A stretch of DNA of 64,000 nucleotides from Vermamoeba vermiformis. Its lineage: Eukaryota. The DNA lies in NCBI GenBank assembly GCA_045837725.1, contig JBEWZL010000119.1, forward strand, positions 62,001-126,000, read 5' to 3'. How positions within the stretch are numbered: position 1 is the first letter of the stretch; every line of letters begins with the position of its first letter. Under the pieces are notes generated by a model. The model was not told where the DNA came from and ran no database searches. It saw only the letters and a list, made by a program, of their open reading frames with translations. The translations under genes were made by a program, and so were the position numbers. This document shows positions 3,874 through 59,350 of this stretch, piece after piece.

Positions 3874-6235
3874 ATGAGTTCTCCACAAGAGACTAAAGTA
3901 GCGGATTCAGCAGCTGACGATCTCAGGTACGCAAGCTATTTCTACCCCTTGAAGCTACAACACAAATAATAACCACGCCAATTAATTACAGCTCTATTCG
4001 CAAAAATTTATTCCCAACGGCGCCAATTCAGCCGAACAGATTGGAAGTATTTTTGAGATTGCGACCAGTGCCCGAGACCACCGAGCTCTCAGTCGCACGC
4101 ATCGATGCTCGTCGTGTAATGTTGCGCGACAAGTTGCGTGAGCACGGTGCGGGCACTGAATTCGAGTTTGATGGCGTGCTGGGCCCTCAAGCTGACGAGA
4201 CTGAAGAGGAGAACAAAGAGAACAGCGATCCTGAGAATGATGTCGATGAAGAGGGCAACAAACCAATGCCTAGCATTAAACAAACGAGCTCTTTTTCCAC
4301 ATCTGGCAGTCAGCGATCTGTCTACAAAACTATTGGTCTGCCTCTCGTTAAGGCGCTATTTGAAGGACGCGATGCATTGTTGGCTGCATATGGATCTTCT
4401 GGTTCAGGCAAGACGCACACTATTCAGGGCAATACAGAAGACCCCAAGGACCGTGGTATCATTCCGCGCATCTTGAGCACCGTTTTCGAGTCTATTAACA
4501 TGGCTGGCAAATCCAAGACCGCGAAAAACAAGAACAGTGACCCTGATCAAGTTGGTACGTTAATATATTATTTTAATCTGCCGAAATGATTGCTCACTCG
4601 AGCTCTACAGTTTTGGATGTCAGCGACGAATTCAAGTATTTCATTTGGATGTCATACTACGAGGTGTACAATGAAAAAGTATTCGATCTCTTGGCACCAC
4701 AAGATAAGAAAGAGGCCCTCAAGGTCAAAGAAGACAAATCAGGCCGGATCTTCGTCCGCGACATCACCGAACAGACACTGACGAGTGTAGAGGATGGCAA
4801 GAAGTGGTTGAATGAAGGTCTTCGCAACAGACGTGTGGCCGAAACCTGTCAGAACCGCGATTCATCGCGCAGTCACTCCATCTTGACCATTAAGATTGCT
4901 CAGATCCCCAAAAAAGCTAGCAAAGAGGAGCTGCACGAGAACCCTAAACTCGTTAAATACAGTCGCCTGTCTGTCGTAGATCTTGCCGGCAGTGAGCGCG
5001 CCAACAAGACCAAGACAGCAGGTGATCGCATGCGCGAGGCCAGTCACATCAACAAGTCACTCATGACGCTCGGCATGTGCATTGAGACCATGCGCTACAA
5101 TCAGCTGCACCCCAAACAGACGCAGCAACAAGTCGTGCCCTTCAGACAGTCACAACTCACGCGTCTGCTGCAGGACTACTTCACCGGCAATGCTAAGGCG
5201 GTGATGATTATCAACGTCAATCCGCGCATGCTCGACTACGAAGAGACGCTGCAAGTGCTCAAATTCGCTGCTGTCGCCAAGACCGTCGTCACCACCACCG
5301 CCAAGAAGCGTGTGGTCGCGGTGAGTCACACTGCCTATGTGCCGGGTCAAGCTCGTCCTGCAGCACCGAGTGTGCCCCAACCAGCCCCAGCCACACCACC
5401 AAATATGGAAGTGGGCGAGGTCGATACAGATCAGGTGATTGATGAGCTGCTCGATCAAATCGATGCGCTGCGCAGACAAGTGGTCGAATCAGAGCTCAAA
5501 GCCACTGAAGTCGAGATGCGAGTGCGCAGCGAGGCCAGCAACGAACTTGCCACTCGATTGTGCGAGTTTGAGCAGATCTACGAAGAGCGCCTCGAACAAG
5601 AGCTCAGTGTGATGGCTGCCATGTACCAGAAGAAGATCAAGATTGCACTCGATGCATCACGTGCTGAGCAGAGTGAGGGCCACGCACAGCACTCGGAGAC
5701 TGAGCGCAAGACTGAGCAGGACAGCGCCGAGGCTGACCGTCTGCGCGAGCAAGTGTCGCGCTTGCAGGATGACATTCAAGCACGTGACGCTGTCATCGAA
5801 CAGCTTCGCAAAGAATTGGCCGCACAACAAGAGACCAATGCGCGCACCAGCGAGAGCGGCGAGTTTGACACGCCGAGCAAGAAATTGAGCTTCAAAAAGA
5901 AGTTGAAAGACATGTTGACACCTGTCAAGAAGTTGAAGCGCAAAGAACCAGCCTCCAATCACGAGGACGAGGGCGGGGCGAAGAAGAAGCAGCGCACTGA
6001 GGGTCAGTTCCACTGCATGAGTCCGCAGCAATTCTCGCCCGTCACTTCGCCAAATAAGGAAAATGAGGAGGAGAATGTACCGACCAGTCCGCAACCCGTG
6101 CGCAAGATTGCAGTGTCACGTGCCACCAAGCGACAGGTGCCAGAGGAGGATGAAGAGCCTGCTGTCGTGCCGCGCGTCGGAAAAACACCCATTGCACGTC
6201 GTTTGCGAACACGAGCACCGACTAAAGCCAAATAA
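3874..6235 (+). CDS. kinesin-6 family motor (KIF23/KIF20-like), 3 exons
   Basis: YGSSGSGKT P-loop, NRDSSRSH, DLAGSER, SLMTLGMCIETMRYNQ, VPFRQSQLTRLLQDYFTG, YEETLQVLKFA; coiled coil and basic tail. Confidence 0.88.
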
Positions 6236-6398
6236 GGCAATTTTGTGAATATGAACAATCTTGAAGGGAAATAAGAAACAGAAGTGGATCTGTTGTTGTT
6301 TCCATTTTAGGCAATTGTTTTATTGACCAGCAAGGTCAATGTCTGTACAAATAAACTACAAGCTGTATTATTATTATTATCTACAATGTGGGTCATAC

Positions 6399-9300
6399 TC
6401 AGCTCTCATCCACCGTTCTGAATGCGAATTTGAGCAGTTTTGATTTGCTGGCGGTGGATTGTTCCGCGGTACTACTGGTGTCCTCGGCTATTTCCTTTTT
6501 AGGAGTGGCTAGCTCCTTTTCAGGCGTGTCAGTGACCGCTGATTGGCTGGCCAGGGCTTCACGCTGTTTTTGCAGTCGTTTCCTTTGCACAGTCTTTTTG
6601 AACTTTTTGAGCTCATTTTCGCTGTCACTGCTGTCACTGCTGTCACTCATTAAAATCACGTGACCAGCTTCTGCGGGCTGGTCGGAGTCGCTCATCACGT
6701 GATCATCGCTCGAAACCTCTATCACACGTTTCTGTTCAGTCACTCTCGCAGTGGGTTGTGTTGCCTTTTTTGGACTAGTGCTGTCACGTGGTGGACCGCG
6801 ATAGACAAATTTGTCCAGCGAGACATGTGACTTTTTCAGCGGAGATTGTATCTCGGAGTCTTCCGCGCTGGCAACACTGCTCTGACGTTTCTTGGCACCC
6901 GTTGGAGTGACACGTTTGACATCATCGTTGACAGGTGTCACCAAGTCATCCTCATCGCTGTCACTCATCTCGCGCATTTTTTTCACGCGCTCACGGATCT
7001 TTTGCCGCTTTTGCATGGCTGATTTGCGCTCGTCGTACGAATCCACCTTCTCGAGCAAATATTCAATGAACGAGTTGGCGGTGATTGAATCGAGATTGCA
7101 GTCACGTGACAAGTTCTCATCGACTTGCAGCTTGTCTTCTTGACCATTCAGCGCTTCACCGAGCACTTCGAGCTTGTGATCGATCAGGTCCCAGATCATC
7201 TCGTCAATGGTGCCAGCTGCCACCAAGTAGTGCACGTTGACACTTGACACTTGACCAATGCGGTGCGCGCGATCTTCGCATTGACGCAGCGTGCCTGGAT
7301 TCCAGAACAGTTCCGCAAAGATCACCGTGTTGGCAGCTGTCAAAGTGAGACCAGTGCCAGCAGCTGTCATGGACAGCACGCCCACGCGACAGTTCGGCTC
7401 ATTTTGAAAGTGCGTCACGAGCTCGTGGCGTGCATGACCAGGCGTTCTTCCGTCGATCTGAATGTGCTCGATGCGATGCGTGTTCATGAAGTGTGCAATG
7501 CCATCGAGCACGTCTTGATGGTGGCCAAATACCAGGAATTTGTCGCCACCCTCGAGCAGATCGGTGATGTACTCCAACACGGCTGGTAGCTTGGCAGTGC
7601 CAGTGTCGCGGAACAATTCTTGAATCACGCGGATCTTGTGGAATGAGAGGTCTTTGGCCTTGTCTAACCGTTCTGCGTCTTCTATATTTGGAAACATCAG
7701 TGAGTATATAGCCACAAACTAGCGCAAAGATTGATATTACTTGATTTGGCAGTCTGTTGCAGCCCTTCTCGGATCTCACTCAATTCAGTGCTGATCTTTT
7801 GGATCATTTTCTGCTGTTTGGCCGGTATATTGATCGACACCTGCGTGCACCGATTAATCGACCGACATGGCCAAATAAGGCAAGTGGCATACCTTTTGTC
7901 GCAGTTTAGCAGGCAGTTGCGTGAGTACTTGCTGTTTGAGGCGCCGAATCATGACGCTCTCGCCCAACAGACAGTTCAGCTCTTTCAAGTGCGAGTTGCC
8001 CGTGTAGTCCCAGCGCTGAAACTGATTCTTGTGACCGTTGCAATAGCGTGCTCCGAAGGGCGGGAAGTACGGGAACAGATCCGTTCTGATGGCACTCAGC
8101 TGCGAGAAGAGTTCCACGGGCCGCGAGACAGCAGGTGTGCCCGTCAACAGCACGGCACGCTTGGCTCGCTGCAGGATCGGAATAACTGCCTTGGTGCGCT
8201 TGGCGGAATAACTCTTCAAGAAGTGGGACTCGTCGCAGATGACCACTTTGAAGTTCACTGCGTCTATTTTAGGCGCCATCTTGGTGACGAGATCGTACGA
8301 GATGATGTTGACAGGTGCCAGCACGTCACATTTGCCCGTCATCACGACGTTGATGTCCGTGCTCGGAATATCTCCCAGCCACCGCTCGAGTTGTTCCGCC
8401 CACTGCAATCGGAGCGAGGAGGGTGTGATGATGAGCAAGGGCCACTCATCTCTATAATAGGCCGCGACACCAATGGCTTGAATGGTCTTGCCCAGGCCCA
8501 TCTCATCGCCGATCAGTGCGCGGCCTGCCTTCTCGACCACGAACTGAATGCCCTCCGCTTGAAAGGGCAGCAGTGCATTCACCAGCGAGTTGGGCAGTTT
8601 GGTCCACACCATCGTAGGGCTATTTTTAGCTGCACCGTTCATGAATGCTTTGAATATCCACTCGGGCAGTCGCGTGACATTGACGTGGTGCTGTTTGAGC
8701 GTTGTGAACACGTGCTCGTGTTGCGACAGTTCGTAGCTCCAGCGCTCTGATTCGTCGTCTATTTTTAGATCAGTATACTGTGTACCACACTGCACGACTG
8801 CTTACCATATTTGGCAGTGGGCAGTGATTGCAACAAGCGCACAAAGTTCGGGTGCGTGATGGCCATGGGAATTCTCAGAAAATTCTTGAAGATCACGTGC
8901 TGCACGACGAATCGATCACGTGCCACGAGACTGAACTCGTAGTGCCCTGTCGGCAGTGGTCCGACGTTCAGTGAAGCGCTAGGTCTGGGCGACAGGGGCG
9001 TGTTGGGTGCGCTATTAATAGGACTCGGTGTGCTAGTCGCGGTGCTGGTCGTGACTGCATTCAATGCGGTGTTATTACCATTTATGGCAGGTGTCACGTG
9101 ATTGGTCGGTGCAGTTCTGGGTGCATTGGGTGAGGGACTCGAGACTAGAGCTCGCTGCGCAGTGTTGTGAGGCTGAGTGGGCGTGCTATTTATAGCATTG
9201 GGTGCATTGCCATTTATGGTAATATTTGATTTTGGTGAGCTGACAGGCGGTGTGCTGCTGGTTGGTGACTGCGCGACAGATCTGCCCAACAACTGACTGG

Positions 9301-9715
9301 TGCTGATGAGTCGCGGACTAGCAAGTGTATTGCCATTATTGTAAGGACTAGCATTACCATATTTAGCACCATTAATTGTATTTGCAGGTGAACTTGACGG
9401 ACGAGTGACTTGTTGACGCAGATCTGACTGATTAACGCGCGCAGTATTTGGTGTTGAATTGTTGTTCATATATGGTTGTTGATATGTGTTATAATTAGGA
9501 CTCGTAGTGTAATTGTTGGTGGGCAGTGAATGGCTCGATCTATTATTAATTACAGGTGTTGGGGCGGTGGTATTAATTTTCCCAGCGTTGAAATTATTCC
9601 TAGAATTATTGTTCAAATTATTGGGACTCGTGCTGGTACTAGTATTCGTCTGTGCTGATTGTAAGGCTTGCTCGATCGCAGCCCACTCGCTGTCGTCAAT
9701 GAATTCAGTGTCCAT
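6399..9715 (-). CDS. SMARCAL1: SMARCAL1/ZRANB3-type SNF2 annealing helicase
   Basis: LLPFQAEG, GDEMGLGKTIQA, DESH, LLTGTPAVSRPVELF, KFLVFGHH, AELFWNPG...QCEDRAHRIGQ; HARP-like segment upstream; N/S/T/P-rich N-terminus. Confidence 0.85.
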
Positions 9716-9892
9716 GCTGTCACGATATTATTGCCGTAGTATAAATACTGTACTTGTTTATCTTATCGTGGTGTCCACCAGCAGCTGCATTAAAAAAAAT
9801 TGTTCTTGTTCTCAGAATTTATTTTGTTCGATCCAAAAGTATTGACATCAACATGTGCAATTAACTGATATTACAATACATAAATTGTAAGA

Positions 9893-12638
9893 ATGAGCTT
9901 AGACGTCAATACACAGGCACAAATGCAAGACGAAAGTTACGCAGATCCGTTTGGTCTGACTCATGTCGAGTATACTGCAGACGGTAATTATCGAGGCGCA
10001 ATAATTTTTAATAAATTATTTTATCGTTGTTTTTGTAAAAATCAGGATTAAATTTCTTTTCAAAACACGATCCGATCAGATTCAGATCCACAAGTCTTTC
10101 AAAATTTGTGGCTAATTCAATTAAATTAGAAATATTTTACGCGTATACGCATTTTCAAAATATAACACATTGCTTGCAGGAGGGTTGGCGACAGATCAAC
10201 TGCTCGATCACACCGCGAATGGTGCCGCACCGAACGGGCACGTGGCTGGTGACAGCACCGCGCTGGAATTCAGTGAACAGAGCAAATCTGAGAGCGAGAT
10301 TGACAAGTTGATGCGCGCACTGCAACTCAACCGCGACTACCAGGCCTATTTGCGCGAACAACTGCGCGTGCTCGAACAGGCTCAGCTGCGCAATCGAGAG
10401 CTGCAGCGCGCAGTGAGCGAGACACTGATGAAACAGGCCTGTCAACCTGTCAAACCGAGTCACGTGATTGCGGGGGCTGTCAAGAGCAAAGCCTCCAAGA
10501 GCAAGAGCGGCATCAGATATTTTGTGGACGAGCTCGGCAATGTAAGCTATTTTTAGCATCGATTGCCTTATTTAGTAATGTACTGATCACGTGCCAGATG
10601 CCACCAGACAACGAAGACGGCGCACGACGCAAAGCACAGCTGGCCAAGATGCCCATGTACCACAAGCCCAAGCGATGTATGTCCTAATTAGGCAAGTGCA
10701 TGTACGACAGCTGACACGTGTCAAACAGGGACCCCCGCGGAGTTGAAGAGTCTAGCGAAGGGTGTGCGGCAACAGAACCAACAGCTGCTCGTGAACCAGT
10801 TGTACGACGAGTGCGCGGACAAATCGATCGACGAGTTCAATGCAGATCTGGAGAAGATCAAAACACTGAGCGACCGAGAGCTCGAAGAGAACCTCGAGGG
10901 CATTGATTGGGACCTCGTGGCCAAGACCTGCTGTCCCGATCGCTCGGGCGAGGACTGTCGCATCAAGTGGCTGGCGACCAATCCGCTCGTGAACAAGAGT
11001 GCGTGGCTGCACTGCGCATTGAACGAGACTAACGCGCTGTTCTATATGCAGGTCCGTGGTCCAAAGACGAAGACAAGAAGTTGCTGCAGCTCGCCACCAC
11101 GCACGAGGCTACACACTGGGACCGTGTGGCACAAGACCTGCACACGAACCGCACACCGACGCAGTGCTTGATGCGATATCAGCGCAGTCTCAATGTCAAA
11201 CTGCTCAAGAGGTACGGCTCTATACTTGTAGTGTTAGTGTGCTAATAATGGCAGCAAATGGACGGACGAAGAGGACAAGCTGCTCATGGACAGTGTGCGC
11301 AAGTACGGCGAAAAGAATTGGCAGCAAGGTACGTGATGCAGCTCTATTGCCTTATTTGGACATTGATTGACCATACCGCGCAGTGGCCAACTCACTGGAG
11401 AACCGCACTGGCCAGCAAGCACTGCACCGCTGGATGAAGACGCTCTCCCCGCACATCAAGCGCGGCAAGTGGGAGTGGAGCGAGGACATCAGACTCGCGC
11501 TCTCAGTGCAGGCCTACGGACAGAATCGACTCTGGAACAAATTGCACCGTCATGTGCCGCGCCGCACCGATGTGCAGTGTCGTGAGCGGTGGTGTACGTG
11601 TCTTTGCAAGTATTTCAGTGCACGTGACTGACAATGACCTAATTAGGCAATGTCCTCAATCCGGATCTGAACATGGGCCCGTGGACGCCAGAAGAAGACG
11701 AGAAGTTGTTGGAGTCGGTGGCACGGCACGGATTAGGCAAGTGGGCCCTGGTGGCGATCGATCTCTATCCGCGCACGGACAATCAGTGCTGGCGACGCTG
11801 GAAGACTGGGCGCAAAGATCAGCTGAGTGCCTATCGCAGGACCATTAAGAAGAAAGAACAGCTGCTCGTCAAGAACTTTGCAGGACGCGAGAAAGAGCGG
11901 CCCCATCACATTGACGTGGAGGACTTGGTGGACCTGTCGGAGGAGGGCAGCGAGGACGAGGACGAAGAGCTCGAGCTGAGTGACGACAGCGAGGAGTACA
12001 CTGCCAAAAATAGAAAACGAAAAGCGGCACCGCGCAGCACTCGTGCCAGCAAGCGACGCAAGACGAGCAAAGACATGGACTCGGAGCTGTCCGAGGCCGA
12101 GTTGAGTGACGAGATGACAGGTGACACCAGCAGTCACGCGACTGACACACCTGCACGCAAGACTAAGGCCAAGAGCTCCGCACCTGCAAAGACAAAAGCC
12201 AAGCCGCGCAGTGCACCTGCAAAGAAAGGTCGCAAAGGCAGTGCAGCGAGTGCCACCGCGGAGCCAGCCTCCGAGCCAGTGCTGATCGTGGACCGCGATG
12301 TGCTGATAGACGAGCAGGGTGAAGTGACGGACAGTGCCTTGCCTGTCGTGCTGCCCTCGCCCGTCACACTGCGTGCAGCATTCAAGCTGTTGACGACACT
12401 CGATCAGACAGCGCGGCCAGACACCGCGGCTGATGAGCGCAATCTCGATCTCGTGCTCGAACACGTGGACTCGCCTGACTTCAAACTGCTCGCGGCGTGG
12501 TTCAACAGTCTGTTCTTGTACCCCGCACTCATTGCCAAGGACTTGGGCTTCGTTGCCAATCCGCTGCACCACAGTCACGCTGCGAGTGGCGCGGTGAATA
12601 ACAACAACTGGAACATCAACAACTTGCACGGTAAATAA
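9893..12638 (+). CDS. SNAPC4: snRNA-activating protein complex subunit 4 (multi-Myb repeat)
   Basis: ALQLNRDYQAYL coiled coil, YFVDELGN..PPDNED, then Myb repeats (IDWDLVA, PWSKDED, KWTDEED, GKWEWSED, GPWTPEED) across several introns. Confidence 0.85.
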
Positions 12639-12801
12639 TAGGACTGGTGGATTGGATGCTGAATGGGAGCCGTTGTGCAGTGCGTCAACGACAAGTTTCA
12701 GTGAATCAGTGCTTCATGAATGGCTGTGAATGTAGCCAGTGCAGGGTCAATAGAAGTAAACGAACTTGTTGTTATTGTATTTTAATTTGTCCTCGCTATA
12801 A

Positions 12802-14218
12802 TTACACACTAGTATCGCTGTTCTTGCTCGCAGTCTGCCACGAGTGTCTGACCACCAGTGAGGTCAGAGGTATGCGCTGGCCATCGTATCCGACGCGCAC
12901 GGAAATCTCCGGTCCGAGATTATCTTTCTCGACCGAGTCAATGACTTCTTGTGTCCACGTGTGACTCATGCCCAACCAAAATTGCCTTTTTAGGACGCAG
13001 TTCACTGATGAAGTCACGTGCTTGAGGCCAACACCAGTGTGACACGTGCTTGCCGCGCGGCAGCAGTGAGTCGACTACTGCTAGCTCCACTTCAGGTCCG
13101 TGCTGGTCACTGTTAGAGTGCCCTGGTTGATCAGAGTGCCCTGGTTGATCGCTGCTGTCACGTGACTGGGCCGACAGACCAATCAGCGCACGTGTCTCGG
13201 CACTCAGACCCACGCAGTCACTCATGTACAGCACTGCTCCGAACTTGTAGCCCGCGCAGTCACAGTTCGCACCGTGTTCCATGCTCTGTAATTGGTCAGT
13301 GCTATTGCCTAATTAGGAAAGTGACGTACGAAGGGCGTGATGGTCAGGCCTTCAATCTCAATCGGCGCGGTGTCGTACGTGCGGAAATCGAGCTGTGCCA
13401 CGAATGAACTGCCTGTAGCACGTGCTGTGTTTACCAAATAAGGAAATTTCTGTCGCATGGGCTCGAGGTCTTTGCCGCGCACATAAATAGGCAGCGAACC
13501 GCGCAGCACTCGTGTGTAGTCGCGCAGATCATCGAGCCCGAGTGCCTGGATGTGGCTGTTAGTCAATTGTGCTCAATGCCATGGATGTACTTACAGCATC
13601 AGCGTGGTCGTGGGTGATAATAACAGCATCTAATACGCGAATTTGATATTTAACGAGCCAAGTGAGCGCTGAATCCATGAATGTTTTGCCGCAGTCAATT
13701 AAAATATGTACGCGATAGTCTACGAGCTCATCGTCATCAGGCAGTGGTGTATCAATATCATTTGTCGTAGTGGAGGTGCTGCTCGCTGTATTATTGGTCG
13801 ATGCACCACTCGCAGTGGCGTCGGTTGATGGATTTGCTGGTTTTTGATAAAGAGTCTTTTCGTCTTCATGAGGACTTCTTATTTTACGTCTTATTTCGCC
13901 CTAATTTCATCGTTAATATTAATATTACTGCGTTGTAAGGTATTGAGAATTCAAAGACTGAGATCCGTTCGGAGAAATAACATGCACACGACCACGCACC
14001 TTAGTCTTCTTCGTATTAAATGCGATCATAGCCGATGTATTTCTGCGGCGATGAATGCTGTCGGGGCTGAATCTGGCTGCGTGACAAACTTCACAATGAA
14101 CACCGCCCGTCAAACAACTGAGACGAGGCACACCTTCAGAGGTACCTGAGCCTAATATAATCAGCTCGGGATTCAAATCAAAGGGTTCTATATTCACGGT
14201 CTTCGTAGTGTCTGTCAT
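12802..14218 (-). CDS. PhnP-like metallo-beta-lactamase hydrolase (eukaryotic THxHADA type); frame break near 12971
   Basis: LGSGTSEGVP, RRRNTS, ILIDCGKTF, ITHDHADA, GLDDLRD, EHG, YMSD, GMSH, VGYDG. The last two motifs lie in a different frame from PKKAILVG. Confidence 0.82.
13115..13150. repeat. perfect 18-bp tandem duplication inside the MBL CDS (DQPGHS x2)
   Basis: AGAGTGCCCTGGTTGATC at 13115-13132 and 13133-13150. Confidence 0.9.
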
Positions 14219-21370: not shown

Positions 21371-21399
21371 TCGTCAATGATGAAAATAGGCGCGAGAAC

Positions 21400-34174: not shown

Positions 34175-36152
34175 TTAAGGCTTCCACAACTTCAACAAAC
34201 CTTCGTCGCTGTAAGTGCACAACAAATTTCTGTGCGGGTGATGCGACAGACCAATCACTTCGCGCTCGTGTACTTTGGGAATAATGTGCTCGAGTTTGCT
34301 CGTGGCAGTGGAGAAACAATAGAGCGTGTTGTCTTCTGTCACACCGTAGATCCACTCGCCCTTTGGTGACACGGTGAAGGACACAAAGTCTGCTTTCTCT
34401 TTTTGACCCGATGAGAATGATTTAATGACCTAATGGAGGATACTTAAAATCAACTCTATGTAGTACAAAAGCCTTTGTCTTACCTGTCCCGTGATGCTCA
34501 TCACGTACAGCACAGGTGATCTGTTGGACACGACGAATTGGTCGTTGGTGCGCGGCAACATGTGCAGCGCAGTGACAGCGAGTTCAGAGGTGAGATTGCC
34601 AGGCGTGAATGTCTGCACGCAATCAGTGGTCTTGCTGTCCCACACACGGATAGTGCCATCACTTGACGCTGACACGACGGAGTTGCCATCAGCGCTGAAC
34701 ACTGCCTCGTTGACATAACTCGTGTGACCGCGGAATATCTTCAATGTCTTGCCGGATTTAATGCCGTGGATTCTGATCAGAAGTCAGATATTGCCTAATA
34801 AGGAAAGAAAAGTAGTTCATACCTGACAGTTTGATCGAACGAGCCAGACAAAATTTGCATGCCGTCCTTGGAGAATGACACGCACGTGACACCTCCAGTG
34901 TGCGCTGCATCGAATCGTCTGAGACACTTGCCAGTGCGGATCTGCCACACCTTGATTTGTCCGTCTTGACTGCCACTCACGAGATGTTCGCCGTCCTTGG
35001 TGAAATTCAAGCACAACACGCTGGTCTTGTGCGCCATCAACTTGTCTTCAGCTTGGTACTGCAATTCTTTCTTCAATTTGCCTGTCATAAAGTCCCACAC
35101 TTCAATGAAGCCGTCCACACTGCCTGTCACCAAGAACTGCCCGTCAGGTGAAAATCGAGCACATTCTGCGTGCACTTTTTCTCCGAATTTAATTGAGCGC
35201 TCCATTCTGCGCGGAAATGTCTCCGCTTCTTCTTTCTCAGGACCCTTGCCGCGGAACAAATCGTGTTGCGCTCCTGCGGGCAATTGTCCTTGCAACTGTT
35301 GATATTTCAATGCTTGGCCTAATAATAGCAACAATCGAGACGGCGGTGCCACCACAATTTCCTTTAAAATATCTATATTTGGTAATTAATAAGCGAGCTA
35401 TTGTGAAATTTCAAACTAGCGTACCTTCAGCTAATTCCGCTCGTTTCTTTTCTTTAGTAACGCCCGAATAAAGCTAAAAACAATATTATTAATGCCCTAT
35501 ATATATGTTAATATAATTCATGCCGTACATCTTTTGGATCTGAATAGCCGCGAGCAATCATGTGTTCTAAGCGCAAATATCGTTCAGGCTGTTCTTGTTT
35601 CAACAATGACATGGGCTTAGTCTGTCTTAATAGTGCTCGTGCTACTTCTGTTTCTTTTACTTCGACGAGCTCTAATACAATCTATAGGAATAAATTAGAA
35701 CCGAAGCTGAAGAGTAGATCTGGCTTACCTGTTCGTAAAGGTTTGTCATCTTATTTAAAGGAATTTTCAATGGTGAAATAGCTGCTAGTACGTGGTCCCA
35801 ATTGCCATTTTTAATATTATTTGATAGTGTTTCCATATTATCGACAGCGTTCAAAGAGACTTGAGACTCTTTCTGTATTGTGCGAAAAAATAAATTAATA
35901 TTTAATAAAATATTGGGAGATAATAGCACGAATAAATAAGCTGTTACAAATTATTTAGAATTTTTTTAACGAGATGGATCCAAAAGCATAAACTTTTCTT
36001 ACCTGTAGAGTATCGAAAGAGTTCATAAGCCCTTGTTCTTTCAAAAATTGTAATACGAGGCGAATAACACTAGTTCAAATCAGTTACCGAATTAACTTCA
36101 CAAACTCGCCATCTATCACTTACTCGCCGGATTCTACTTCTATTAAGCTCAT
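34175..36152 (-). CDS. SMU1: spliceosomal WD40 protein SMU1
   Basis: [82 protein letters not shown]...LKLWKP. Confidence 0.96.
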
Positions 36153-39078: not shown

Positions 39079-41356
39079 ATGGCAACTAACGGCGACGATT
39101 TGTCCTCTCGTGTTAACGAGCAGGCTCAATGTAAGACGATCTGGATTCGCATCTCGATTCGATCGCAAGCTGATTTGTTTTTTCCAAACAGATTTTGATA
39201 ATTTATTGTCCATGATTCCCGCAAAAAATTACTTCACCAAGGAAGTGTCGAACGACGATTGGGTAAGAATAATCTCAATAATGAATCCCGATGCATTTTT
39301 TACGCGGGGCTTAGATTAATTGTTATAAAATCAACAGGAGAAGAATTTCAATAAAAAGAAGAAGAAAAAGAAGAATAAAAAAGACCAGAAAGAAAATCGA
39401 GGACAGAAGAGAAAACGAGTACGTGCTAGTTGAGGATTTGTCACAAATAATCATGCAAACTGCTTCAATATACATTAATATACTAGTGATATTTAATTAT
39501 TATTTAATAACGTTAAATATTAATTGCATCTGACTTTTTCTGATCAGGATCCAGATGCATTGAAAACAGTTCCTGAAATATTACAAGAGCGATATGAAAA
39601 TAAATTGAAGGGAGTCACAGATGCTAATGGTGAGGTTGAGGATCGCGATGTTCAACCTCCTCCCGCGAAAAAACAAAAACTCGATCACAAGAAGCAGATC
39701 GAGAAACCGATCAAGAAACAAGAAAAGAAAGCTCCTGAACCTGTCGCTGAAGACAGTGATGATAGCGAAGATGAACATGATGACGATGAGGTTAATGATG
39801 ATGATGAGGCCATGGAAGTCCAAGAAATTGATGAGGATTCTGACAGCGACTCAGATGACAACCCTAAAAACCGAATCCGTAATGTGGAGTCTGAGAAACA
39901 CAGCGAATTGAAGAAGAAGTTATTAGAAAAGATCAACGAAATGCGAAAATCACGCAGCGTGCCTTTATTAGGAGGTAATATCGACTTTCGATTTTGGATC
40001 GCGTTTCATTTTATTTTTAAAATTCAGCAAAAATATCTAAGGCATAGTTGTCATCACCAATCTATATAATACGCAAATCATACCATAATCATGTCGAGAT
40101 CTGGTCTCTAACATACTTTCTATTATTAGATGATTTCCGACCTCTCGACGAAGACGTTAAATCAAAGCGATTGCGCCGAAGACTTGAAAAATTAGAAGAA
40201 AAGTAAGTATAGAGCTTATATTTGGAATTAAATATGAATTTGTGACGGAGATAATTATTGCGCGTTGATAATTTGTGTCACAATTACAGTGTGAATTAAT
40301 CGTTGATTTCCAAATTAGGAAAAAGAAGGGCCTTATTAAGGATGAAGAGGACTCAACTGAAGGCAAGAAAAAGAAAAAGCCGCAAAACAAGAAGAGCAAG
40401 GTGGATCGTGCCCAAGCTGCTGAAGAGAAGAGCGAGAGCGAGGCCAATGGCAATGACGCAGAGAGCGGTGATGAGAATGAGAGCGGCGAGGAAGAGAACA
40501 GTGCCAATGGTGAGGCCATGCAGGAGGACGAGGAGAATGAAGGTATGAAACTGTTCAATAATTATCTTTTTACGGATCTGTTTCGATTTATCCAACTAGC
40601 GATACAATTTTATTCGTATTTTAATCTTGATATGGATCATTACTATATGAGTGCATCATTAACGGTTATTTGTCGCAGATCTTCAGTTCGGTACATTTGA
40701 TTTCAGCACAGGCAAGCCGATGCCGACTTACTTGCTCAAAAAGCGAAAACAATTGCCCAATCATATCTTGTTGAAGAAGGTGAGTCTCTTATAATGCAGC
40801 ATAATAGTGCCATATTTAAATGGGTGTGAAAATTGAGCGGTGGATCTAGACCTTGTCTCGAGATGTTTGCGGTTCTAATTACGCTCTATTTACAGGCACA
40901 AGAAAATAAAGAAAAGATGGAGAGCTTGCCCGAAGAGATCAAAGAAAAGAAGATGTGGGACACTGCCTTGAAGAAGGCACAAGGTGTCAAGGTGAAGGAC
41001 GACGCAACTCTGATCAAGAAATCAATCAAGCGCGAGAAGTCTAAGAAACGAAAGAGCGCTAAAGAATGGTGCGTCGCTTATTATTGTGTCCTATGAAAGC
41101 GTTGATCTAATTGTTATTACTATATTAGGAAAGAGAGAGAAGACGCAGTTAAGAAACAACAATCCGAGCGACAGAAGAAACGAACAGAAAATATTAATAA
41201 GAAGATTCAAGGCAAGAAAGAAAAGCGCTTAAACAAGATTGTAAGTTGATTTTGTCGTTATTCGATCTTAAAGTCGGTGCTAATAATTGTTGCCTATTAC
41301 AGAAAAAGAGACGACCAGGTTTCGAAGGTGCCAAATCCAATTTCATCAACAAATAA
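39079..41356 (+). CDS. SURF6: SURF6/RRP14 ribosome-biogenesis protein
   Basis: RRP14-like YFDNLLSMIPAKNYF; SURF6 C-terminal WDTALKKAQGVKVKDDATLIKKSIKRE..KRKSAKEW...RPGFEG. Confidence 0.92.
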
Positions 41357-43496: not shown

Positions 43497-46400
43497 ATGA
43501 GCAAGCGAAAGCCACAGAAAGTAGATTGGAGTAACAAAAAATACTCGTCGATTCCACCGACCCTAATACAGCAACAATCATTGTCAAATGTTGTGGAATT
43601 AAGATTATCGAATAATTCATTAAAAGAACTGCCGTGGGAAATTTTGGCGCAAGCGATGCCTAATCTGCGGAGTTTATGGCTCAACAAGAACGAATTTGCA
43701 GACCTACCAGCAGGAGTAGCTCAATTAAATGGATTAAGAAAATTGCATTTGGAAGACAACAAAATTACCATGGTTACACCCCAGATTTCGAAGCTAGAGG
43801 AACTGAGGAAACTGTATCTAAATAATAACAAATTAATTCAGCTGCCAGCGGAAATGCATAAATTAGCACAATTAACGAGGCTCAACGTATCAAATAATAG
43901 CCTCAAAATTATCCCATCGGAGTTCCATTGCTTGACCCAACTTAAAACGCTCAACATCGACAACAATCCAATGATCTCGCCACCGCCATTTATGTGCGCG
44001 AGTGGCACCATCCCTCTGCTCAATTTTCTAAGGCAGCAATATGACTCGTTGCAAAAGAGAGGCAACAGACACAACATTTCTTCAGCGAGTTTGAAGAATC
44101 TGCCGATGGATGACGGTTCAAAGACGGGTGGTAAAACGCCTCCTGTATCCAAGAGGACCTCTTCACGGCCACGAGATCGAGATCGAGAGCGGTCCAATTC
44201 GCTAACGGTAATTACTTTTATAGCAATTACAGCAGTTCAAAACTTTCAAATTAATTAATGGATCTTAACTTCCGAAAAGTACTTTTGAACGTAGTGAAAA
44301 TTAATAGTCTATATGGCCAAGATATTATTAGAGTAAATTTTGAACCCCAACCCCTCCCAAGATCCGGAACACAATTTTAATTCATTAATTTAGAAATTTA
44401 AACTGCGTTTAAAAACGGTTTTTATTTCTAATAATAACTTTATTGTTAATACCATAACAGTTCTATCATATTGTAGCTGATTGTTTATAATTTTACTCAT
44501 TCGAATTTTTTACGTTACAGCATAGCGATGGCTACACGAACTTTGGGGCTAATCAACGCGTGTATATATTAGTGACTCATTGTGTATCTCAATCACAAGG
44601 TCTACGTCCTTATATGGAAGACAGATACGTTGTAATTCCTGAAGTCAAACTCGATCATCTGCACACAGATGAGAGCCTGCAGCTCGTTGATACATTTAAA
44701 ACCAATAAGAAGCGCAAGAAGAGAAGGAAGTCAGACGCTTCTAGTGCCAGCAATGAAAAAGGAGTAAGTTGTAACGTTAGATCACCAGCGAGACCAACAA
44801 ATTGCCTTTTAAGGAAATTCACAAAACTTATTTGCCCTTCACTCTAACCTCATAATATGCTACGCAATCAATTATATGATCTAATCATGATTTTTTGCAT
44901 TTTTTTAGGAACCAAAACAAGAAGTTAAACCTGGTTTAGAAATGCTCAATGAAGGTGATTATAATTTAACAGGCTTTTAGCCCTCGACATTTATTAAATT
45001 ATGTATTATAGTCCCCGAAGAGAACAATGATAGCACAAAGACCCCCAACGGCTCTTCAGATCCGAGCACCACAGCACCGAACACCGGTAAATCCGACACT
45101 GTTCCAAGCAGTGCTCGCGGACTGAAGAGCTCTTCATCGAGCAATGCAGCAGGAGGCAATAGCGGTGCAGAGCAAGCACCTTCGCCCGATTCAGTTGAAG
45201 GCTTGAAGGCCAAAGAGAAGAAAAAGAGAGCGAGTGACAGACCCAAAAAGACTGGTACCCCAGCAGCACCGAGTGACACGCAAACTAATCCTCATTCAGA
45301 GCCTAATTCTTTGAATCCTGGCGAAATGCCAATGAAATCGTCTTCGAGACCTGAGCTGTTTAAACACAAACCACTGGATCCGACGAGCGAACAGGCCAAT
45401 AACAACGAGGCTGTGAAAAAGAAGCCGTCAAAGAGAGATTTGATTCGCGAAGAACGAAGCAAAGATCTCAAGAGTCAGCTGAAAGACATGAGCATTAAGG
45501 ACAAGGACGACAAAGAAGACAAAAAAGAAGAGACCAACAGCAACAAAGAAAACAACGCAAACAACAATTCCAAAGAAGAAAATAATCAAAGCGAAGACAA
45601 AAATACAAAGGATGATGCAGAGAAAAACTCAGACGAGTTAACAAAGCGTGCGTCAAGTCCTCGCATATACATCACAGACGATACTGTGCTTGATCCCGAT
45701 GCACCGGCTGTGACCATCGACGCCACACCAGAGACCATCGAAAAGCAGGTCAAAACAACGTCCAAGCGCGGCTTCAAAAAGCTCCGCACGGGCAGCGGTA
45801 CGTTAAATGCTTCATGAACTCATTGGTGTTCTTGCTATTCATTACTGACGCTGGTTTGCTCTAGTGGGCATCTTTGGCGTGTACGACGGACACGGTGGAG
45901 GTCGTTGTGCTGATTACACGGCTGACAATCTTCACATCAACATTATGAACGAGAAAGAAGCGCTCAAGAACGACGACTTCAAGACAGCTTTCCACAAAGG
46001 ATTCCTCAAGACCGACGATCAGTTCTTAACCAAGTGTCGCGAGGAGGTTCGTGGCATCATAGTTTGTTGTCTTTAAGTCGGTTATTAACACGTGATTAGG
46101 GCTGGATGGACGGCAGCACAGCGGTCTTCGTCATGCTGAAAAACAATCGATTGATGTTGGGCCACACTGGTGACACGCGTGCTGTGTTGTGTCGCGGCAA
46201 GAAAGCGATTGAATTGACATCTGATCACAAGCCTGATCGCCAAGACGAGCAAGAAAGGTCAGTACTCTTCGCACTTACTATCGCTTCGAGGTTGTGCTTA
46301 CATTAAGCCCTTTAGAGTTGAAAAGCTTGGAGGCAAAGTCGAAGTGAGCGCACAAACAGGTTGGGTCCCCCGTGTCCAAGGACATCTCGCTGTGTCACGA

Positions 46401-49363: not shown

Positions 49364-50233
49364 ATGCTCGATTGTAGAATGAAGAGACGTAATTGCCACG
49401 ACACATCCGCCAAGCACAAAGCGAAGAGGCCAAAGCACGGTGATGGTGCAGCGAAAGCAACACTCGCTGAACCAATTTTGGATCCTTTTATCCCCGTGGA
49501 TGTTATTAAGCACCATATTATTCCATTTGGAGCACTGGATTGGCTATTAATATCTAGGGCAATTCATCAAGTTGCCATGCACCACATTGTAGACGATGAA
49601 AGAGTTATTGCAAGACAAGATGCAATGCTGAAAGAAGCTGTGATACGACAGCATTTTAAACTGGTAGAACGGTTACTTGAAGATGACAGGTATACATCAG
49701 AACACACGTTAGAAGAGGCCATTAATACAATAATTTTCGATAGTGATGATGATGGTGGATTTAAGGAAGTTGGAGAGGAGGATAAAAGGCTTATTAAGCT
49801 TCTGTTAAGCCACAAACTATTTGCTACAATCTGGCCTGACAATATCTTAAGGACTGCAGTTCAAAATGGATGGATTGACGTTGTCCAGCATATTCTTGCT
49901 ACAAGCAAGCATACATTTGAAAATTGGCATGGGATTGCAATATATTGCAGTGCTCCTGTTGAAACACTTAAACTCATTAGGCAAGACCCGAGGTTCCGTT
50001 CAAACGATGAGAAGACTGCTAAACAGCTAAGGAATGCAATATCTCGAGGTAACATAGGAGCAGCGATCCTAATTCTGGAGGATGAAAGGACGAATTTTGA
50101 AAGTGCGGTGAGGATATTAGGTCGGTTTAGAGAAGGTGTAAAAATTTTGTTAGCAGACCCGAGATTAGTACAATCAACTTATTATCAAAACATAATGTGC
50201 GAAACAATAGCTGAGTTCGATGAACTGCGTTGA
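49364..50233 (+). CDS. intronless divergent ankyrin-repeat-like protein with F-box-like N-terminus
   Basis: EAVIRQHFKLVERLLEDDR, TAVQNGWIDVVQHIL, NAISRGNIGAAILILEDER, VKILLADPR; IPVDVIKHHIIPF. Confidence 0.6.
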   Translation: MLDCRMKRRNCHDTSAKHKAKRPKHGDGAAKATLAEPILDPFIPVDVIKHHIIPFGALDWLLISRAIHQVAMHHIVDDERVIARQDAMLKEAVIRQHFKLVERLLEDDRYTSEHTLEEAINTIIFDSDDDGGFKEVGEEDKRLIKLLLSHKLFATIWPDNILRTAVQNGWIDVVQHILATSKHTFENWHGIAIYCSAPVETLKLIRQDPRFRSNDEKTAKQLRNAISRGNIGAAILILEDERTNFESAVRILGRFREGVKILLADPRLVQSTYYQNIMCETIAEFDELR

Positions 50234-50653: not shown

Positions 50654-52949
<2,296 letters not shown>

Positions 52950-54566: not shown

Positions 54567-54955
54567 GGTGATAAATGTAAATAGAATAATTCTTTGTAAT
54601 TTGTTTTTTCTTTAAATAACAGATCGCGTGACAAAACGAGAAAATCAATAAAAATTCAACAAATATTTTTATAAAATTGCTAAGCAATAATTTTGCAATG
54701 TAACTTGAAGATGCAGTAATCAAAAATACTTTTACCGAATGACAACAATAGGAGCTTTTGATCTTCGAAAAAAGACTGATTAAATCATCTCAGGTAACGC
54801 GCAATTATATGGGGTCCATCATATATTCAATTAAATACGTCGTACTATAATTTGGTGCTATTGAGTTCAAAGTACGTTGTTTTTGAGGACAAAATCTTCA
54901 GGCCTATTTAATTTTTTGTGTGTCAAAAGTCCCGAGGCAGCACAACGCTTAAAAT

Positions 54956-57121
54956 ATGGATATTGATTGTGTAGTAGTGTTTGATCTTCGAGATAAGTAA
55001 GTAATCATTTATGTGGCCTGATCTTTCGATTAAATTTTTTTTTATAGGTTGGAAGTTAGCGCCTTGTCAGAAATTAAATGCGCTGCTTTAACAATAATTT
55101 TAGCATTACATAAGCAATCACTAGCTCATGGTTTTACTCTATTAAAAATCGAGGAGTCAGCATCTGGAATTTTCCTCGAGCCAACAAATAATTTGGAGCC
55201 TATTCAAGTAGCTATCGAGGCCATACTAGAGAGAAAAATTCTAAGAAATATTGAAGCAGCCGAATATATCAACGAAGTCTCAAAATCAATTGGTGATAAA
55301 GTCCTGTCATTGACCATATTTTCCAACGGATCCAAAGAGTTGATCACCGATGCCTTTCTTAAATTACAGTGCAATATGGAAGTATTCTTCTTAGGCCCTA
55401 CATCGTGCAACATGTCATCACTTCAAGCCCAAGCCAACAAATTTGCTTCGGGTGATGCGAGTTACTGTCTGGACTTTATTGATCGTGTCAATATGATCGA
55501 TCAAATGCAAAGTGGCAATGAAATTTCACACGAGAGCGAGAAGCCTGCGAATGTAGATATACCAAAAAAGGAAATTGAAGTTGTACAGAAGCCCGAATCA
55601 AGCCTACAACCAGTGGCCTCGAGCAGTATAAATTTTGCCACGACTAAACGGCTCGATGTGGTACGTTAACAATTGAAATTAATATAATTATATTAACATG
55701 GTATACTAGCCTCGTCGAGCTAAAGCTAACGGCCGACCTCCGACGAAGAAAAAACGATCAGCAGCCGCGCCTGACACCCAAGAAAGTGATGCTGAACACG
55801 TGCCTGAAAGTCAGCCCGTTGATACCAAACACGAGCCTGAAAAGCAGCCCACGACACCTGAAAAACAGCCGACCAGTCCTGAACGCAAACCTGCGCCGAA
55901 CAAACCCTTGCCCGAACTTCCAGTGGCTAACATTGCCCCGTCCTCACCGCCTGAAACAAAATCCACCGCGCCGAACAAACCTCTACCCGAAGTTCCAGTG
56001 GCTAACGTTGCCCCGCCCTCGCCACAAACTGAGCCAAAATCAACTGCGCCGAAAAAACCTTTGCCCGAGATTCCCACTCCTCAAATCGCCCCGCCGTCTC
56101 CAAGGTAAGAAAAAACAATACTATTATTAATAAAATTAACGTGTCCTGTTAGGAGCCCGAAAGCTAGTCCTCGAATTGAAATCACAGTGATCAGCAACGC
56201 AATTGCTGATAGCGCGGTAAAGAATCAACATGAAACTGCATCAGTGCCGCCATCATCGAGCACGGAGCCCGTGTCCAATGAAAGTCCTAAGAGCCAAACT
56301 AACGAGGCTGAACCTAACGCCGTTACACCTGTGCCAACTGAACACAAGCCAGAAGAGCCACAAGTCACAGCCACACCGACTAAAACACTCGAGACAGAGT
56401 CACCGTCAATACGACCACCCTCGCGCTATGGCGTGGAAATACCAGAGTCTGAGAGGATTGATCGAAGTATCAAACAGGCCATGTGGAAGACGTACAAGAA
56501 GTCGAGTGATGATCACGAGTCGACAGATGAATACAGCAATTGGAGCGATCAGAGCGAGTACAGTTCAATGGAACAGGCCAAAGATAAAGACACCGCGAGG
56601 AATTCTAATTCTAGCCAGAAGAGCCAAGGCAGTCAAACGAGTCAGACAAGCAAGGCTAGTCAAGCGAGTCAAGTGAGTCAGACGAGCGATGCACAGTCAC
56701 AAAAGAGTGTTAGCCCTGAAGATCTGAAGCGCGTGTGGGTCAAAGTCAACACTGAAGGCGTCGGATCTAGTCGCTACACGAGCTATCAGATTGAAGTTTT
56801 GGTACGTACTTGACCTCAATAATGCACTCTATATCAAGCGCTACCTTCAACTTAATCAGCATATTAACTCCTAAGTTGTCTATTTAGGTTAACGGCAAGA
56901 GTGTTGTCGGCCATAAGAGATACTCAGAAATTCGAACGTTGTACGATACATTACACTTTTCCGTCAAGAGCGAGTTCGGCAGATTTCCCTCGAAGACTAC
57001 GAACAAAATGGACACGATGGTTATTTACACGCGCCAACAGTACTTTTTGAAGTTCTTTACAAAGCTATTGGAGATTAATCAAGAAGGCGTAGTTAAATTT
57101 TTACAAACTGATAGCAGCTAA
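54956..57121 (+). CDS. Pro-rich protein with C-terminal PX domain
   Basis: YTSYQIEV, KRYSEIRTLYDTL, FPSK, RQQYFLKFF; central KPLPExP repeats. Confidence 0.72.
55893..56104 (+). repeat. three imperfect 75-78 bp coding repeats (APxKPLPExP..[IV]APxSP)
   Basis: GCGCCGAA starts at 55893, 55968 and 56046. Confidence 0.85.
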
Positions 57122-57551
57122 GTAAAAGTAGTTTACTTGCATAAGGATGTGGATTTCCCGATCGTATTTTAAGCCATTGGAATTCTTGACCAAAGGAACA
57201 TCTGGGAGTCCGATCCAACTTCCAGGTTCTTTCCGCGATAGACTTTAACTAGAATAGCTTCGGCATATAGAACATTGAAGCGATTCCTTATGTTGTTAAT
57301 GACTTTGTCAAGACATCGTGACTTAACTGAGAAAAAATCATGACTTAACTCGACTAGCCGTTTTTTTTTGTCTTAGTTTTTATCTATTCACTTGGCGCGC
57401 AGATAGCCGCGAATATTTTGTCGCGATAACCTTTGTATATTTATGTTTATATTGTAATCATAGGCGTGGCCAAGCAGAGGATTCAGGTTTCCGATTCTGG
57501 CTTTGGTTTAATCTGATCAGTTTTTCTTTCCGATTGAAAAACTAAATTATA

Positions 57552-59350
57552 ATGACATCTTTAGGTAAGTATAAATAGAAAGTTATTGTTTTTACGCTTA
57601 AGATATTTTATTTTGCAAATTGAACTAAGCAACGATTTAATAGACATCCCGGCGAGCTTGCTTGCCTCAGATTTAACCGCTGAGAATGGTCCAGTGCAAA
57701 AAGTAAGTAAATAATTTTTATATATCGATTTTTCTCGTTTATTTGAGCTAAGGAACTAATCCAGAAACAGATCAAGGCATCGAAGGATGTTGGCAAAGAA
57801 AACGTGACCGTAGCAACGAAGCAAGAGTACAAAAAGCCTGCCGATCGAAAACGCAAGCTGCCATTACAAGACTCAGAAGCGCCGAGACCGCAAAAACGCG
57901 CCAAGATCGAGAAATCTGAGGAGATCCTCGCCGCCAAGCCAGATCCGCTCGCAGCCGATTTAAAAGCCGAACTTAAGGACTTATTATTCAAGTCTGATCT
58001 AAACCTACACTTAAGCACTGAAGATGCCAAGACTGAACTCGCGATCGATCCCGAGCTCTTGCAATCCCCAGACAAGTTTAAAACACCCGTCAAAGCTGAA
58101 ACACCTAGTAAAACTATTACACCAGTCAAGGCAGAGTCAACTCCGGTCAAAACAGAACCACATCCGTTTGATATTCAGCAAGGCATCGAAATATCTAAAA
58201 TCACCGAAGAATCTCGGCTATTTTTAGGCAATGCCGATGTGGCCAGTAATTCTGCATGGTACGTCTTAATTACAGAATAATATTTCTACCGATTACTAAC
58301 GCCATGTCTTTATTTAAATGCAGGTTATTATCAGCGAATGTAACGCACATTGTTAACGTGGCCTCAGAGGTCCCGAATTACTACGAGAAGATATTTTTTA
58401 ACGACGATGAATTCCAGTTTACGTACAGAAAGTAAGTTACGCGATACCCGAGTTGACACGTGTCACGTTGACTAATTGGATCTTGTTTAGGGAGCCATTT
58501 AATGATAGCGAACACGAAAATATAATGCCCAAGCTGCACGATTTAACAGATTTCATTAAGAAAGGCCTTGACGCAGGCAGTGTATTAGTGCACTGCAAGA
58601 TGGGTCAATCGAGATCTGTCAGCATTATTTACGCCTATTTAATTAAGCACGGAGGGTACGTACAGCGATATTGCCTTATTTGGAAATAACGGAGCCTAAT
58701 TTTCCTAATACAGAATGACACTACAGTTAGCGAAGAGATTTATCGAAGAGGAATTGAAAATTTTGACTAAATTGAACAATGGGTTTAAGAGGCAGTTGAT
58801 GGAGTTTGAAAAAGAAATTAGAAACGTGACTGAAGCCTCGCACGACTTTTTTGTGTTGCCCAAGCGGATCTCAACGCCGCCAGCGCAGTTCAGGACCCTC
58901 GATCACTTTGTAAGTGCCACTGACACGCTCTATATGATGCAATCTAACCATGTGAATCCCTAGTCACAGAAGAGCAGGAGTTTGAACAGCTCGCCTGCCA
59001 CGCCACAACGTCGAGTCAATTCAGCCTCACCACGCAAGACACCAACTGGACGCAAGACGAACTCGGCGCGCAAGGCCAAAGCCAACACGAACAAGTTGTT
59101 GCGTGCTGCAGTTGGTGTGCCGAGTGTGAAAGATATGCTCGAGCGACAGTTGCACCAAAATCCGTCAAGCACGCAGACGAGTAATAACAATAATGTGAAT
59201 AGTAGCGATATTAATAACAACAATAATAATGTGAATAGTACTAATTCAAAGAGCGATAGTGAAAGCTCGCATAGTGATAGTGAGTCTACGCCTAGCTTGC
59301 CTGAAGGTGTGCGGATCTCACTCAAACTTAGCGGTGTAAAATATAAATAA
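57552..59350 (+). CDS. dual-specificity protein phosphatase
   Basis: LFLGNADVA, VTHIVNVASE, PFNDSE, VLVHCKMGQSRS (HCx5R), NNGFKRQLMEFE. Confidence 0.9.

Follow-up and report, generated by a model that had tools for sequence, protein, structure and literature searches.

CArG boxes in the window

We analysed a stretch of 64 kb from contig JBEWZL010000119.1 of Vermamoeba vermiformis (hereafter the window; position 1 is its first letter) for copies of the CArG box, CC(A/T)6GG, the word of SRF/Mcm1-type MADS proteins. The word itself is textbook; what is new is its genome-wide placement in this compact, intron-rich genome (43.3 Mb in 309 contigs). Among the genes of the window are those for the second-largest subunit of an RNA polymerase, a kinesin, an SNF2-family helicase, and Myb-repeat and WD40 proteins. 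CArG boxes number 27 (Table 1), against a mean of 4.0 and a maximum of 12 in 300 trials of shuffling inside 200-bp blocks. The remaining 15 SS-W6-SS combinations (S, G or C; W, A or T) have 0–5 copies each, and CC and GG separated by 5 or 7 A/T occur 1 and 6 times. A preliminary description of this DNA had listed 23 boxes, had set its 20 or more copies against about 5 expected and had quoted two 16-mers. All 23 coordinates carry the word, both 16-mers match exactly, the local shuffles put the expectation at ~4, and four boxes come in addition. Of the 27, 18 fall within the first 13.5 kb, where GC content is higher.

A gene finder was trained on 800 kb out of six contigs plus the window, i.e. 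864 kb or 2% of the genome. Counts below refer to this sample unless the genome or the window is named. The finder returned 410 genes and about 2,040–2,090 introns (median 59 nt), recovering six of seven RNA-supported introns exactly and the seventh to within 2 nt; the RNA came from a strain ~90% identical. Introns 8759-8805, 11594-11646 and 13284-13329 are backed by RNA joints among the 15 of 26 joints listed; introns 7841-7892 and 10677-10728 are predicted and are not among these.

By these gene models, eight window boxes lie inside introns and three straddle 3′ splice sites, as first described; the box at 8805, which had been grouped with them, straddles a 5′ splice site with nine of its ten bases in the exon. 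One box overlaps a stop codon, one lies between convergent genes, and the remainder are coding. Not all of the introns described as tiny are so, as those with the boxes at 40310 and 44805 measure 116 and 145 nt. Intron 10677-10728 does carry two motifs, a CArG box and the palindrome TGACACGTGTCA. Its host gene had been named SNAPC4; the Myb domains were confirmed, and the name was checked no further than these. At box 12985 the gene model contained a false-looking GC-donor intron. One base at position 12974, in gene 12802-14218, is absent in three runs (two RNA and one DNA), which is probably the mark of an assembly frameshift; the box is therefore probably coding, as had been proposed. The coding match at 49472 is present, but its flanks and position make it possibly a chance one.

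Table 1. CArG boxes and companion words of the window, with the copies of a three-box repeat on other contigs. All features are unstranded (.). CDS, coding sequence; L007, metagenome contig from a relative; G000, the genome analysed here.
Feature	Context	Position	Remark
CArG box	CDS, RNA polymerase second-largest subunit gene	602..611	
CArG box	CDS, WD40 gene	1507..1516	additional
CArG box	CDS, kinesin	5399..5408	additional
CArG box	CDS, kinesin	6050..6059	additional
CArG box	on kinesin stop codon	6228..6237	
CArG box	between convergent genes	6302..6311	
CArG box	CDS, SNF2-family helicase gene	6494..6503	
CArG box	CDS, SNF2-family helicase gene	6764..6773	
CArG box	predicted intron 7841-7892	7871..7880	identical in L007
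MEF2-type CTA(A/T)4TAG	acceptor end of intron 8759-8805	8759..8768	kept in L007
CArG box	spans exon/5′ splice site	8805..8814	kept in L007; two A/T swaps, Lys to Leu
CArG box	low-complexity N-terminal CDS	9078..9087	not kept in L007
CArG box	low-complexity CDS	9210..9219	island of identity with L007
One-mismatch CArG-like word	CDS	9357..9366	perfect CArG box in L007
MEF2-type word	intron 10542-10597	10547..10556	kept in L007
One-mismatch CArG-like word, full flanks	intron 10542-10597	10566..10575	perfect CArG box in L007
CArG box	52-nt intron 10677-10728, Myb-repeat gene	10683..10692	kept in L007
12-bp CACGTG-centred palindrome	intron 10677-10728, on branch point	10712..10723	one change in L007
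CArG box	predicted intron 11329-11383	11350..11359	
CArG box	over 3′ splice site, intron 11594-11646	11638..11647	RNA-supported intron
CArG box	probably CDS	12985..12994	likely assembly frameshift at 12974
CArG box	intron ~13284-13329	13308..13317	RNA-supported intron
CArG box	CDS	13434..13443	
CArG box	over 3′ splice site, predicted intron 32506-32553	32545..32554	
CArG box	predicted intron 34773-34822, WD40 gene	34794..34803	
CArG box	over 3′ splice site, predicted intron 40203-40318	40310..40319	
CArG box	CDS	44608..44617	additional
CArG box	predicted intron 44764-44908	44805..44814	
CArG match, poor flanks	93 bp from ATG of intronless gene	49472..49481	probably chance
CArG box	predicted intron 52543-52592	52559..52568	
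CArG box	CDS	55562..55571	
CArG box	predicted intron 58656-58713	58674..58683	
TGACACGTGTCA	window	10712; regions 15998, 21130, 36800, 47306, 52135, 58455	
Three-box repeat	other contigs of G000	C11:461979-462299, C13:663023-663343, C27:72676-72996, C45:6288-6608, C57:166-486	

Enrichment over the genome

Across the genome, CC(A/T)6GG occurs 9,040 times against 1,887 for reversed controls, and the 18-bp SRF/Mcm1-type palindrome WTTDCCWWATWWGGHAAW, a pattern derived from the 864-kb sample, 837 times against 0. The sample contains 278 boxes, other SS pairs reaching 23–73. A place was assigned to 277 of them: 111 in CDS, 101 in introns, 35 at splice junctions, 16 in tandem, 7 in convergent and 5 in divergent intergenic DNA, and 2 at edges. 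Dinucleotide shuffles yield 5.0 boxes in intron cores, where 101 are found, and 1.8 in convergent intergenic DNA, where there are 7. For distal intron cores the figures are 96 vs 4.6 for strict and 51 vs 0.21 for extended boxes, a further figure being 57 vs 0.003. Coding DNA holds 112 boxes, vs 33.3 ± 5.4 after synonymous codon shuffling within genes, and they fall in all three reading frames (48/46/18). Control words in CDS are below expectation under synonymous shuffling (387 vs 461). Jointly, the excess boxes of coding DNA and junctions outnumber those of intron cores. No increase is seen for the other SS-W6-SS words of palindromic shape, which rules out a general palindrome excess.

We considered whether the boxes might act in splicing or as RNA elements, or might simply follow from branch points, acceptors or codons. 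A few observations have this flavour: 26 boxes straddle acceptors, CTAA(C/T) occurs in 26 of the 101 intron-core boxes, and the three commonest asymmetric cores more often have their T-rich orientation on the sense strand (32 vs 14). However, the distance to either splice site is not fixed, 6 of the 101 intron-core boxes could serve as branch point, and a separate branch point is present in 79 of 99 box-bearing introns. Among acceptors reading SS-W5-AG/G (slash, splice site), CC is the starting pair 26 times, against 4, 3 and 1 for the other pairs. Boxes occur in either orientation in introns and in all reading frames, and their flanks are dyad-symmetric, with TT in front and AA behind in ~70% of boxes (from symmetrised matrices). 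The branch-point, acceptor and synonymous-shuffle counts thus rule out the corresponding artefacts. The enrichment survives control for AT content, branch point, acceptor and Pro-Lys-Lys codons, the very factors that the preliminary description had named as able to undo it. This explanation is largely refuted, and we give it next to no weight.

Promoter avoidance

What the preliminary description lacked is the position of the boxes, which avoid promoters, first introns and promoter-facing gene ends. Intron core less than 500 bp from the ATG contains 4 boxes in 59 kb; beyond this distance there are 96 in 107 kb. Among first introns, 1 of 349 has a box; among second introns, 9 of 310; among later ones, 113 of 1,381 (P 1e-10, first vs later). 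In the window, 26 of the 27 boxes lie >500 bp from the ATG of their own gene. Divergent intergenic DNA has 5 boxes vs 2.5 by dinucleotide shuffles, and the words enriched in promoter DNA are chiefly poly-A and CA-rich ones. Long genes have 3 boxes in their last 400 bp where a promoter follows, as against 17 where the neighbour is convergent (P 0.003). The promoter-proximal enrichment that marks classical promoter or upstream activating elements is thus not found for CArG boxes, and the depletion of promoter-facing gene ends rules out that the boxes serve the following gene as upstream activating sites.

Among later introns, short and long ones have boxes at an equal rate (82/996 and 31/385). 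It is distance from promoters that governs the boxes; intron size does not. The first proposal, that tiny introns are reservoirs of such sites, is thus incomplete, since long later introns do equally well and the coding and junction excess is larger, even if a storage role is conceivable. GC content also climbs with distance from the ATG in all sampled genes, from 0.30 to 0.41 in introns and from 0.44 to 0.52 in CDS.

Candidate readers and companion motifs

The genome has four MADS genes, two of which we read as SRF type and two as MEF2 type, so the search for matching MADS-box genes advised earlier was fruitful. The SRF-type genes are located at about 137.4–137.7 kb of contig C294 and about 103.7–104.1 kb of contig C8. 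Compared with the PDB, one SRF-type gene gave SRF (E 1e-23) and Mcm1 (E 8e-21) as best matches. The Mcm1 palindrome is TTTCCTAATTAGGAAA, which the flanks of our boxes resemble. The core, the six-A/T spacer, the symmetric flanks and the type I MADS genes all bear out, as far as sequence goes, the earlier Mcm1/SRF assignment. Dictyostelium has two genes of each MADS type, the same 2+2 set, and its type I and II classes recognise CC(A/T)6GG and CTA(A/T)4TAG, the same core consensus for both classes as here, according to passages of PMC3640940. Motif shape and gene presence make it very likely that the boxes are sites bound, as double-stranded DNA, by SRF/Mcm1-type MADS dimers.

The MEF2-type word CTA(A/T)4TAG has a placement like that of the CArG boxes, with 52 copies in CDS vs 6.4; 46 of its 86 intronic copies touch splice-site ends. 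The strongest motif class is TGACACGTGTCA, with 2,793 copies genome-wide vs 4 controls. Nearly all of its sampled copies are in later introns or CDS (66 in introns, 17 in CDS, 0 in divergent or tandem intergenic DNA). In the literature, we found this 12-bp palindrome mentioned only in unrelated virus work. The genome has five bHLH matches. Other palindromic or factor-like words are enriched far from promoters, in distal introns, namely TTCASTGAA (28 vs 0.4), TTCATGAA, GAAATTTC and GACAGGTG; promoter-distal placement also holds for TCACGTG, TTCASTGAA, GAAATTTC and GACAGGTG. In contrast, GGATCTGA is enriched in proximal and distal introns alike, and CAGATCYG is distributed flatly along genes, unlike the other classes. 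No fixed spacing of CArG boxes to CACGTG or MEF2 partner words was detected in the sample. It is possible, though we hold it doubtful, that most of the factor vocabulary (SRF, MEF2, CACGTG-binding and others) has moved from promoters to later introns and codons, as distal clusters acting on transcription or chromatin strongly enough to bias codons and occasionally protein.

Conservation in a relative

The metagenome contig L007 covers ~7.7–11.2 kb of the window, its coding blocks having 80–84% nucleotide identity. Four of the five alignable CArG boxes are kept (7871, 8805, 9210 and 10683, not 9078), and both one-mismatch words (9357 and 10566) are perfect boxes in L007. Box 8805 is intact in spite of its amino acid change, and box 9210 stands out inside a region 54% identical. 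Three MEF2-type words are kept as well (8618 region, 8759-8768 and 10547-10556). In five introns, identical positions amount to 66/74 within motifs of all classes and 77/141 outside (P 1e-7), in a test of one sequence pair with motif windows set from this genome. A/T positions within kept sites do change between the relatives. The comparison is, at the level of sequence, a pattern of constraint on binding specificity.

The preliminary description had also suggested that bound sites are mutationally protected. Neutral accumulation, with bound sites mutating more slowly, would yield both conservation and many motif classes without shared function. However, by our own derivation the equilibrium enrichment is capped by the fold drop in mutation rate, so slowed mutation does not suffice: drops of 21-, ~240- to over 1,000-fold would be needed. 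The A/T-to-A/T changes and the turnover within kept sites also count against it. We hold neutral accumulation to be extremely improbable. Mutation slowing being too weak for the observed enrichment, a directional force is needed, and the boxes are probably maintained by selection.

Host genes

At least one box is present in 41% of the 260 long genes, with counts overdispersed 1.9-fold and a weak correlation between neighbouring genes (rho 0.18). The densest genes code for RecQ, an SNF2 helicase, kinesin, Nup85, PAN2, GAA1, beta-adaptin, a chloride channel, a citrate transporter, pyruvate phosphate dikinase and a P450; Hsp70, Nop56/58, CTP synthase, papain protease and RPA1 genes are motif-free. 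A domain check of 142 exons, 10 of them in the window, gave no shared pathway among the box-dense genes (repair, transport, RNA decay, nucleoporin and metabolism are represented, and many exons lack a Pfam match). A cell-cycle regulon, hinted at by the kinesin and helicase of the window, was not borne out in the sampled dense genes. In the top fifth of genes by actin/Hsp70-like codons, box density is 2.0 vs 4.1–7.9 per 10 kb elsewhere (rho -0.20), and 13 of 116 introns have any motif in the top tenth of genes vs 21–25% in the lower three quarters.

These data bear on the possibility that the boxes are intragenic enhancers or silencers, acting on their own promoter 0.5–3 kb away in a genome with small intergenic space. 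Such is a known job of MADS proteins, and the overdispersion, the correlation between neighbours and the joint presence of several motif classes in a gene fit it. Moreover, since sampled promoters mostly have poly-A and CA-rich words, factor sites must lie elsewhere. On the other hand, the dense genes have no common pathway, boxes are spread over a large share of long genes, and the first 500 bp are excluded although 59 kb of proximal intron core is free. Actin genes are classic SRF targets in animals, and two actin genes have no upstream CArG box within the loci examined. We thus regard intragenic enhancers as rather unlikely.

Intronless genes of the sample have 0 motifs in 6.9 kb; this is a weak hint that recently acquired genes are without motifs. 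The intronless AT-rich open reading frames 49379-50233 and 60164-61813 of the window have no Pfam matches and are almost motif-free. There are 123 actin-family matches in the genome; six of them tie for the top score, and many actin-like genes are divergent and lack introns. The actin sequence is closest to PDB entries 4efh, 1nlv and 3chw, actins of Acanthamoeba and Dictyostelium, which points to a probable place in Amoebozoa; TRM1 homologues from named organisms reach about 50–53% identity at best.

Where masked intron GC peaks, box density is twice as high, and the GC-rich, motif-rich domains are tens of kb long. Even the AT-rich MEF2 word follows (4.7 vs 1.1–2.0 per 10 kb). GC-rich domains, with an intron GC of 41–57% vs ~30%, comprise window positions 1-14000 and loci L073-L077 and L042-L046, in which almost all genes are rich in motifs; the autocorrelation of intron GC extends over 12 genes.

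This domain structure could speak for a molecular drive, in which the bound allele is cut less in meiosis or repair and becomes the conversion donor, alongside GC-biased conversion. Drive would also account for the joint rise of many unrelated motif classes, the depletion of close pairs described below would fit overlapping protection, and Spo11-family matches are present at two loci. However, the correlation of CArG density with intron GC is weak (rho 0.13), AT-rich regions still being enriched. In fission yeast, motifs to which factors bind create hotspots, and the outcome is loss of these motifs, not gain. The literature, including the portions of PMC7968521 consulted, gave no support for the protective version. 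We consider drive improbable.

Spacing of boxes

Pairs of boxes 10–100 bp apart are depleted (8 vs 19.8 under compartment-preserving jitter), and pairs 130–200 bp apart are enriched (33 vs 16.4), in bins picked after viewing the data. Genome-wide 30-bp bins contain 111 (50–79 bp), 214 (120–149), 213 (160–189), 138 (245–274) and 130 pairs (330–359), vs 57 for a uniform distribution. One repeat family accounts for 5 of the 50 listed pairs in each hump bin and inflates both by about a tenth. A repeat on at least five contigs (Table 1) has its three CArG boxes at intervals of 147 and 164 bp. A tight one-nucleosome spacing, hinted at by coding pairs 162–178 bp apart, was not confirmed genome-wide, where 120–149 bp is equally frequent. 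There is no oscillation around the boxes of GC3, the GC content at third codon positions. The spacing of intron centres peaks at 120–160 bp in the sample.

Two further explanations were weighed. The boxes might be decoys or stores, surplus sites that hold, buffer or stabilise factors away from promoters, where misregulation would follow. This would account for promoter avoidance, the many families, the indifference to gene function and the weakly transcribed hosts. It gives no reason for retention at the same place between relatives or for spacing above 100 bp, and ~7,000 excess sites would leave a tiny benefit per site; a decoy role seems improbable to us.

The boxes might alternatively be helper sites for replication origins or for cohesin/condensin in quiet gene bodies. 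The clusters of the window do surround convergent gene ends, but origins are expected to be sparser than one box per 4.8 kb. We found no GC/AT skew switch across 38–71 density peaks, the differences being ~0.03 or less and inconsistent, in a comparison of low power. In yeast, Mcm1 binds elements at origins and boosts their activity (excerpts of PMC10361152), which counts for this explanation. We nevertheless consider it quite improbable.

Discussion

The reading that we prefer, tentatively and with somewhat less than even confidence, is that selection maintains the boxes as bound sites, which have a general role in the chromatin of weakly transcribed gene bodies. Weak selection would retain them at thousands of places, and in a large population it would supply the needed force. 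Any sequence with spare freedom could host them (intron cores, synonymous positions and stretches of disordered protein), provided that promoters are more than ~500 bp away, and most would lie in weakly transcribed genes. Their job would be general, not pathway-specific, and shared with MEF2-type, CACGTG-type and other factors. Bound dimers might organise gene-body chromatin by placing nucleosomes, by keeping rarely transcribed genes competent or by suppressing internal starts, and about one site per 120–190 bp patch would suffice. The chromatin role of the dimers is a guess, favoured because there are many factor families, no regulon, promoter exclusion, local saturation and positional conservation.

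Several points weigh against this reading. The six contigs of the sample were picked non-randomly, the gene models are home-made, and the conservation evidence comes from one 3.4-kb contig. Tandem intergenic DNA is ~3-fold enriched (16 boxes vs 5.1 by dinucleotide shuffles), and at 400–800 bp from the stop codon the difference between tandem and convergent gene ends is gone (16 vs 17). The expression proxy is codon-based, and control words correlate with it too (rho -0.15). The spacing forms one broad hump without a second peak, so that neither a phased array nor a tight one-nucleosome fit is supported. Finally, yeast general regulatory factors sit at promoters, the opposite place, and tend to open chromatin.

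Known systems resemble this one in part. Known MADS sites were sought, and found, upstream of their targets; here they are depleted there and spread over long genes without pathway logic. Yeast Mcm1, Cbf1, Reb1, Abf1 and Rap1 have the same motif families (CArG and CACGTG), with many sites and no regulon, and Mcm1 and Cbf1 shape nucleosome-depleted regions (PMC7822557, in part). In these excerpts, the general-factor sites mark nucleosome-depleted regions of promoters, whereas our boxes avoid promoters.

In the unicellular holozoan Capsaspora, which also has a compact genome with partly intragenic sites, those detected by the assay for transposase-accessible chromatin are over-represented in first introns, 5′ untranslated regions and proximal intergenic DNA, and depleted in gene bodies (passages of PMC4877666). 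They are rare in non-first introns, and the authors call sites in such introns an animal feature (same source). As far as these passages go, the layout here is the reverse of that in Capsaspora, although the measures differ, being motif matches here and accessibility there.

Plants and animals have intronic CArG boxes and exonic dual-coding sites, which serve particular genes and in many cases occupy a first or large intron. They are likewise MADS sites in introns and words laid over codons; here, in contrast, the sites are genome-wide, in later introns of 50 nt, and synonymous codons are clearly biased. In Neisseria and Haemophilus, short DNA uptake sequences occur by the thousand in coding DNA and are the subject of a selection-versus-drive debate. 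Compared with them, the present case is eukaryotic and promoter-avoiding, with several palindromic families that match nuclear transcription factors. A literature search, which largely excluded subscription papers and left supplements unopened, found no account of such a layout.

If the boxes are bound and functional, V. vermiformis would be a unicellular eukaryote whose factor sites lie for the most part in later introns and coding DNA, counter to the promoter-proximal view. If the layout is truly inverted, a unicellular lineage would possess a distal architecture that is regarded as an invention of animals. Thousands of near-perfect sites in introns of 50 nt, together with relatives ~2–20% divergent in public runs, offer a clean test of non-promoter sites, which could also separate selection from drive as the builder of the sites. 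Should drive be the cause, this genome would be a eukaryotic counterpart to the accumulation of uptake sequences in bacteria.

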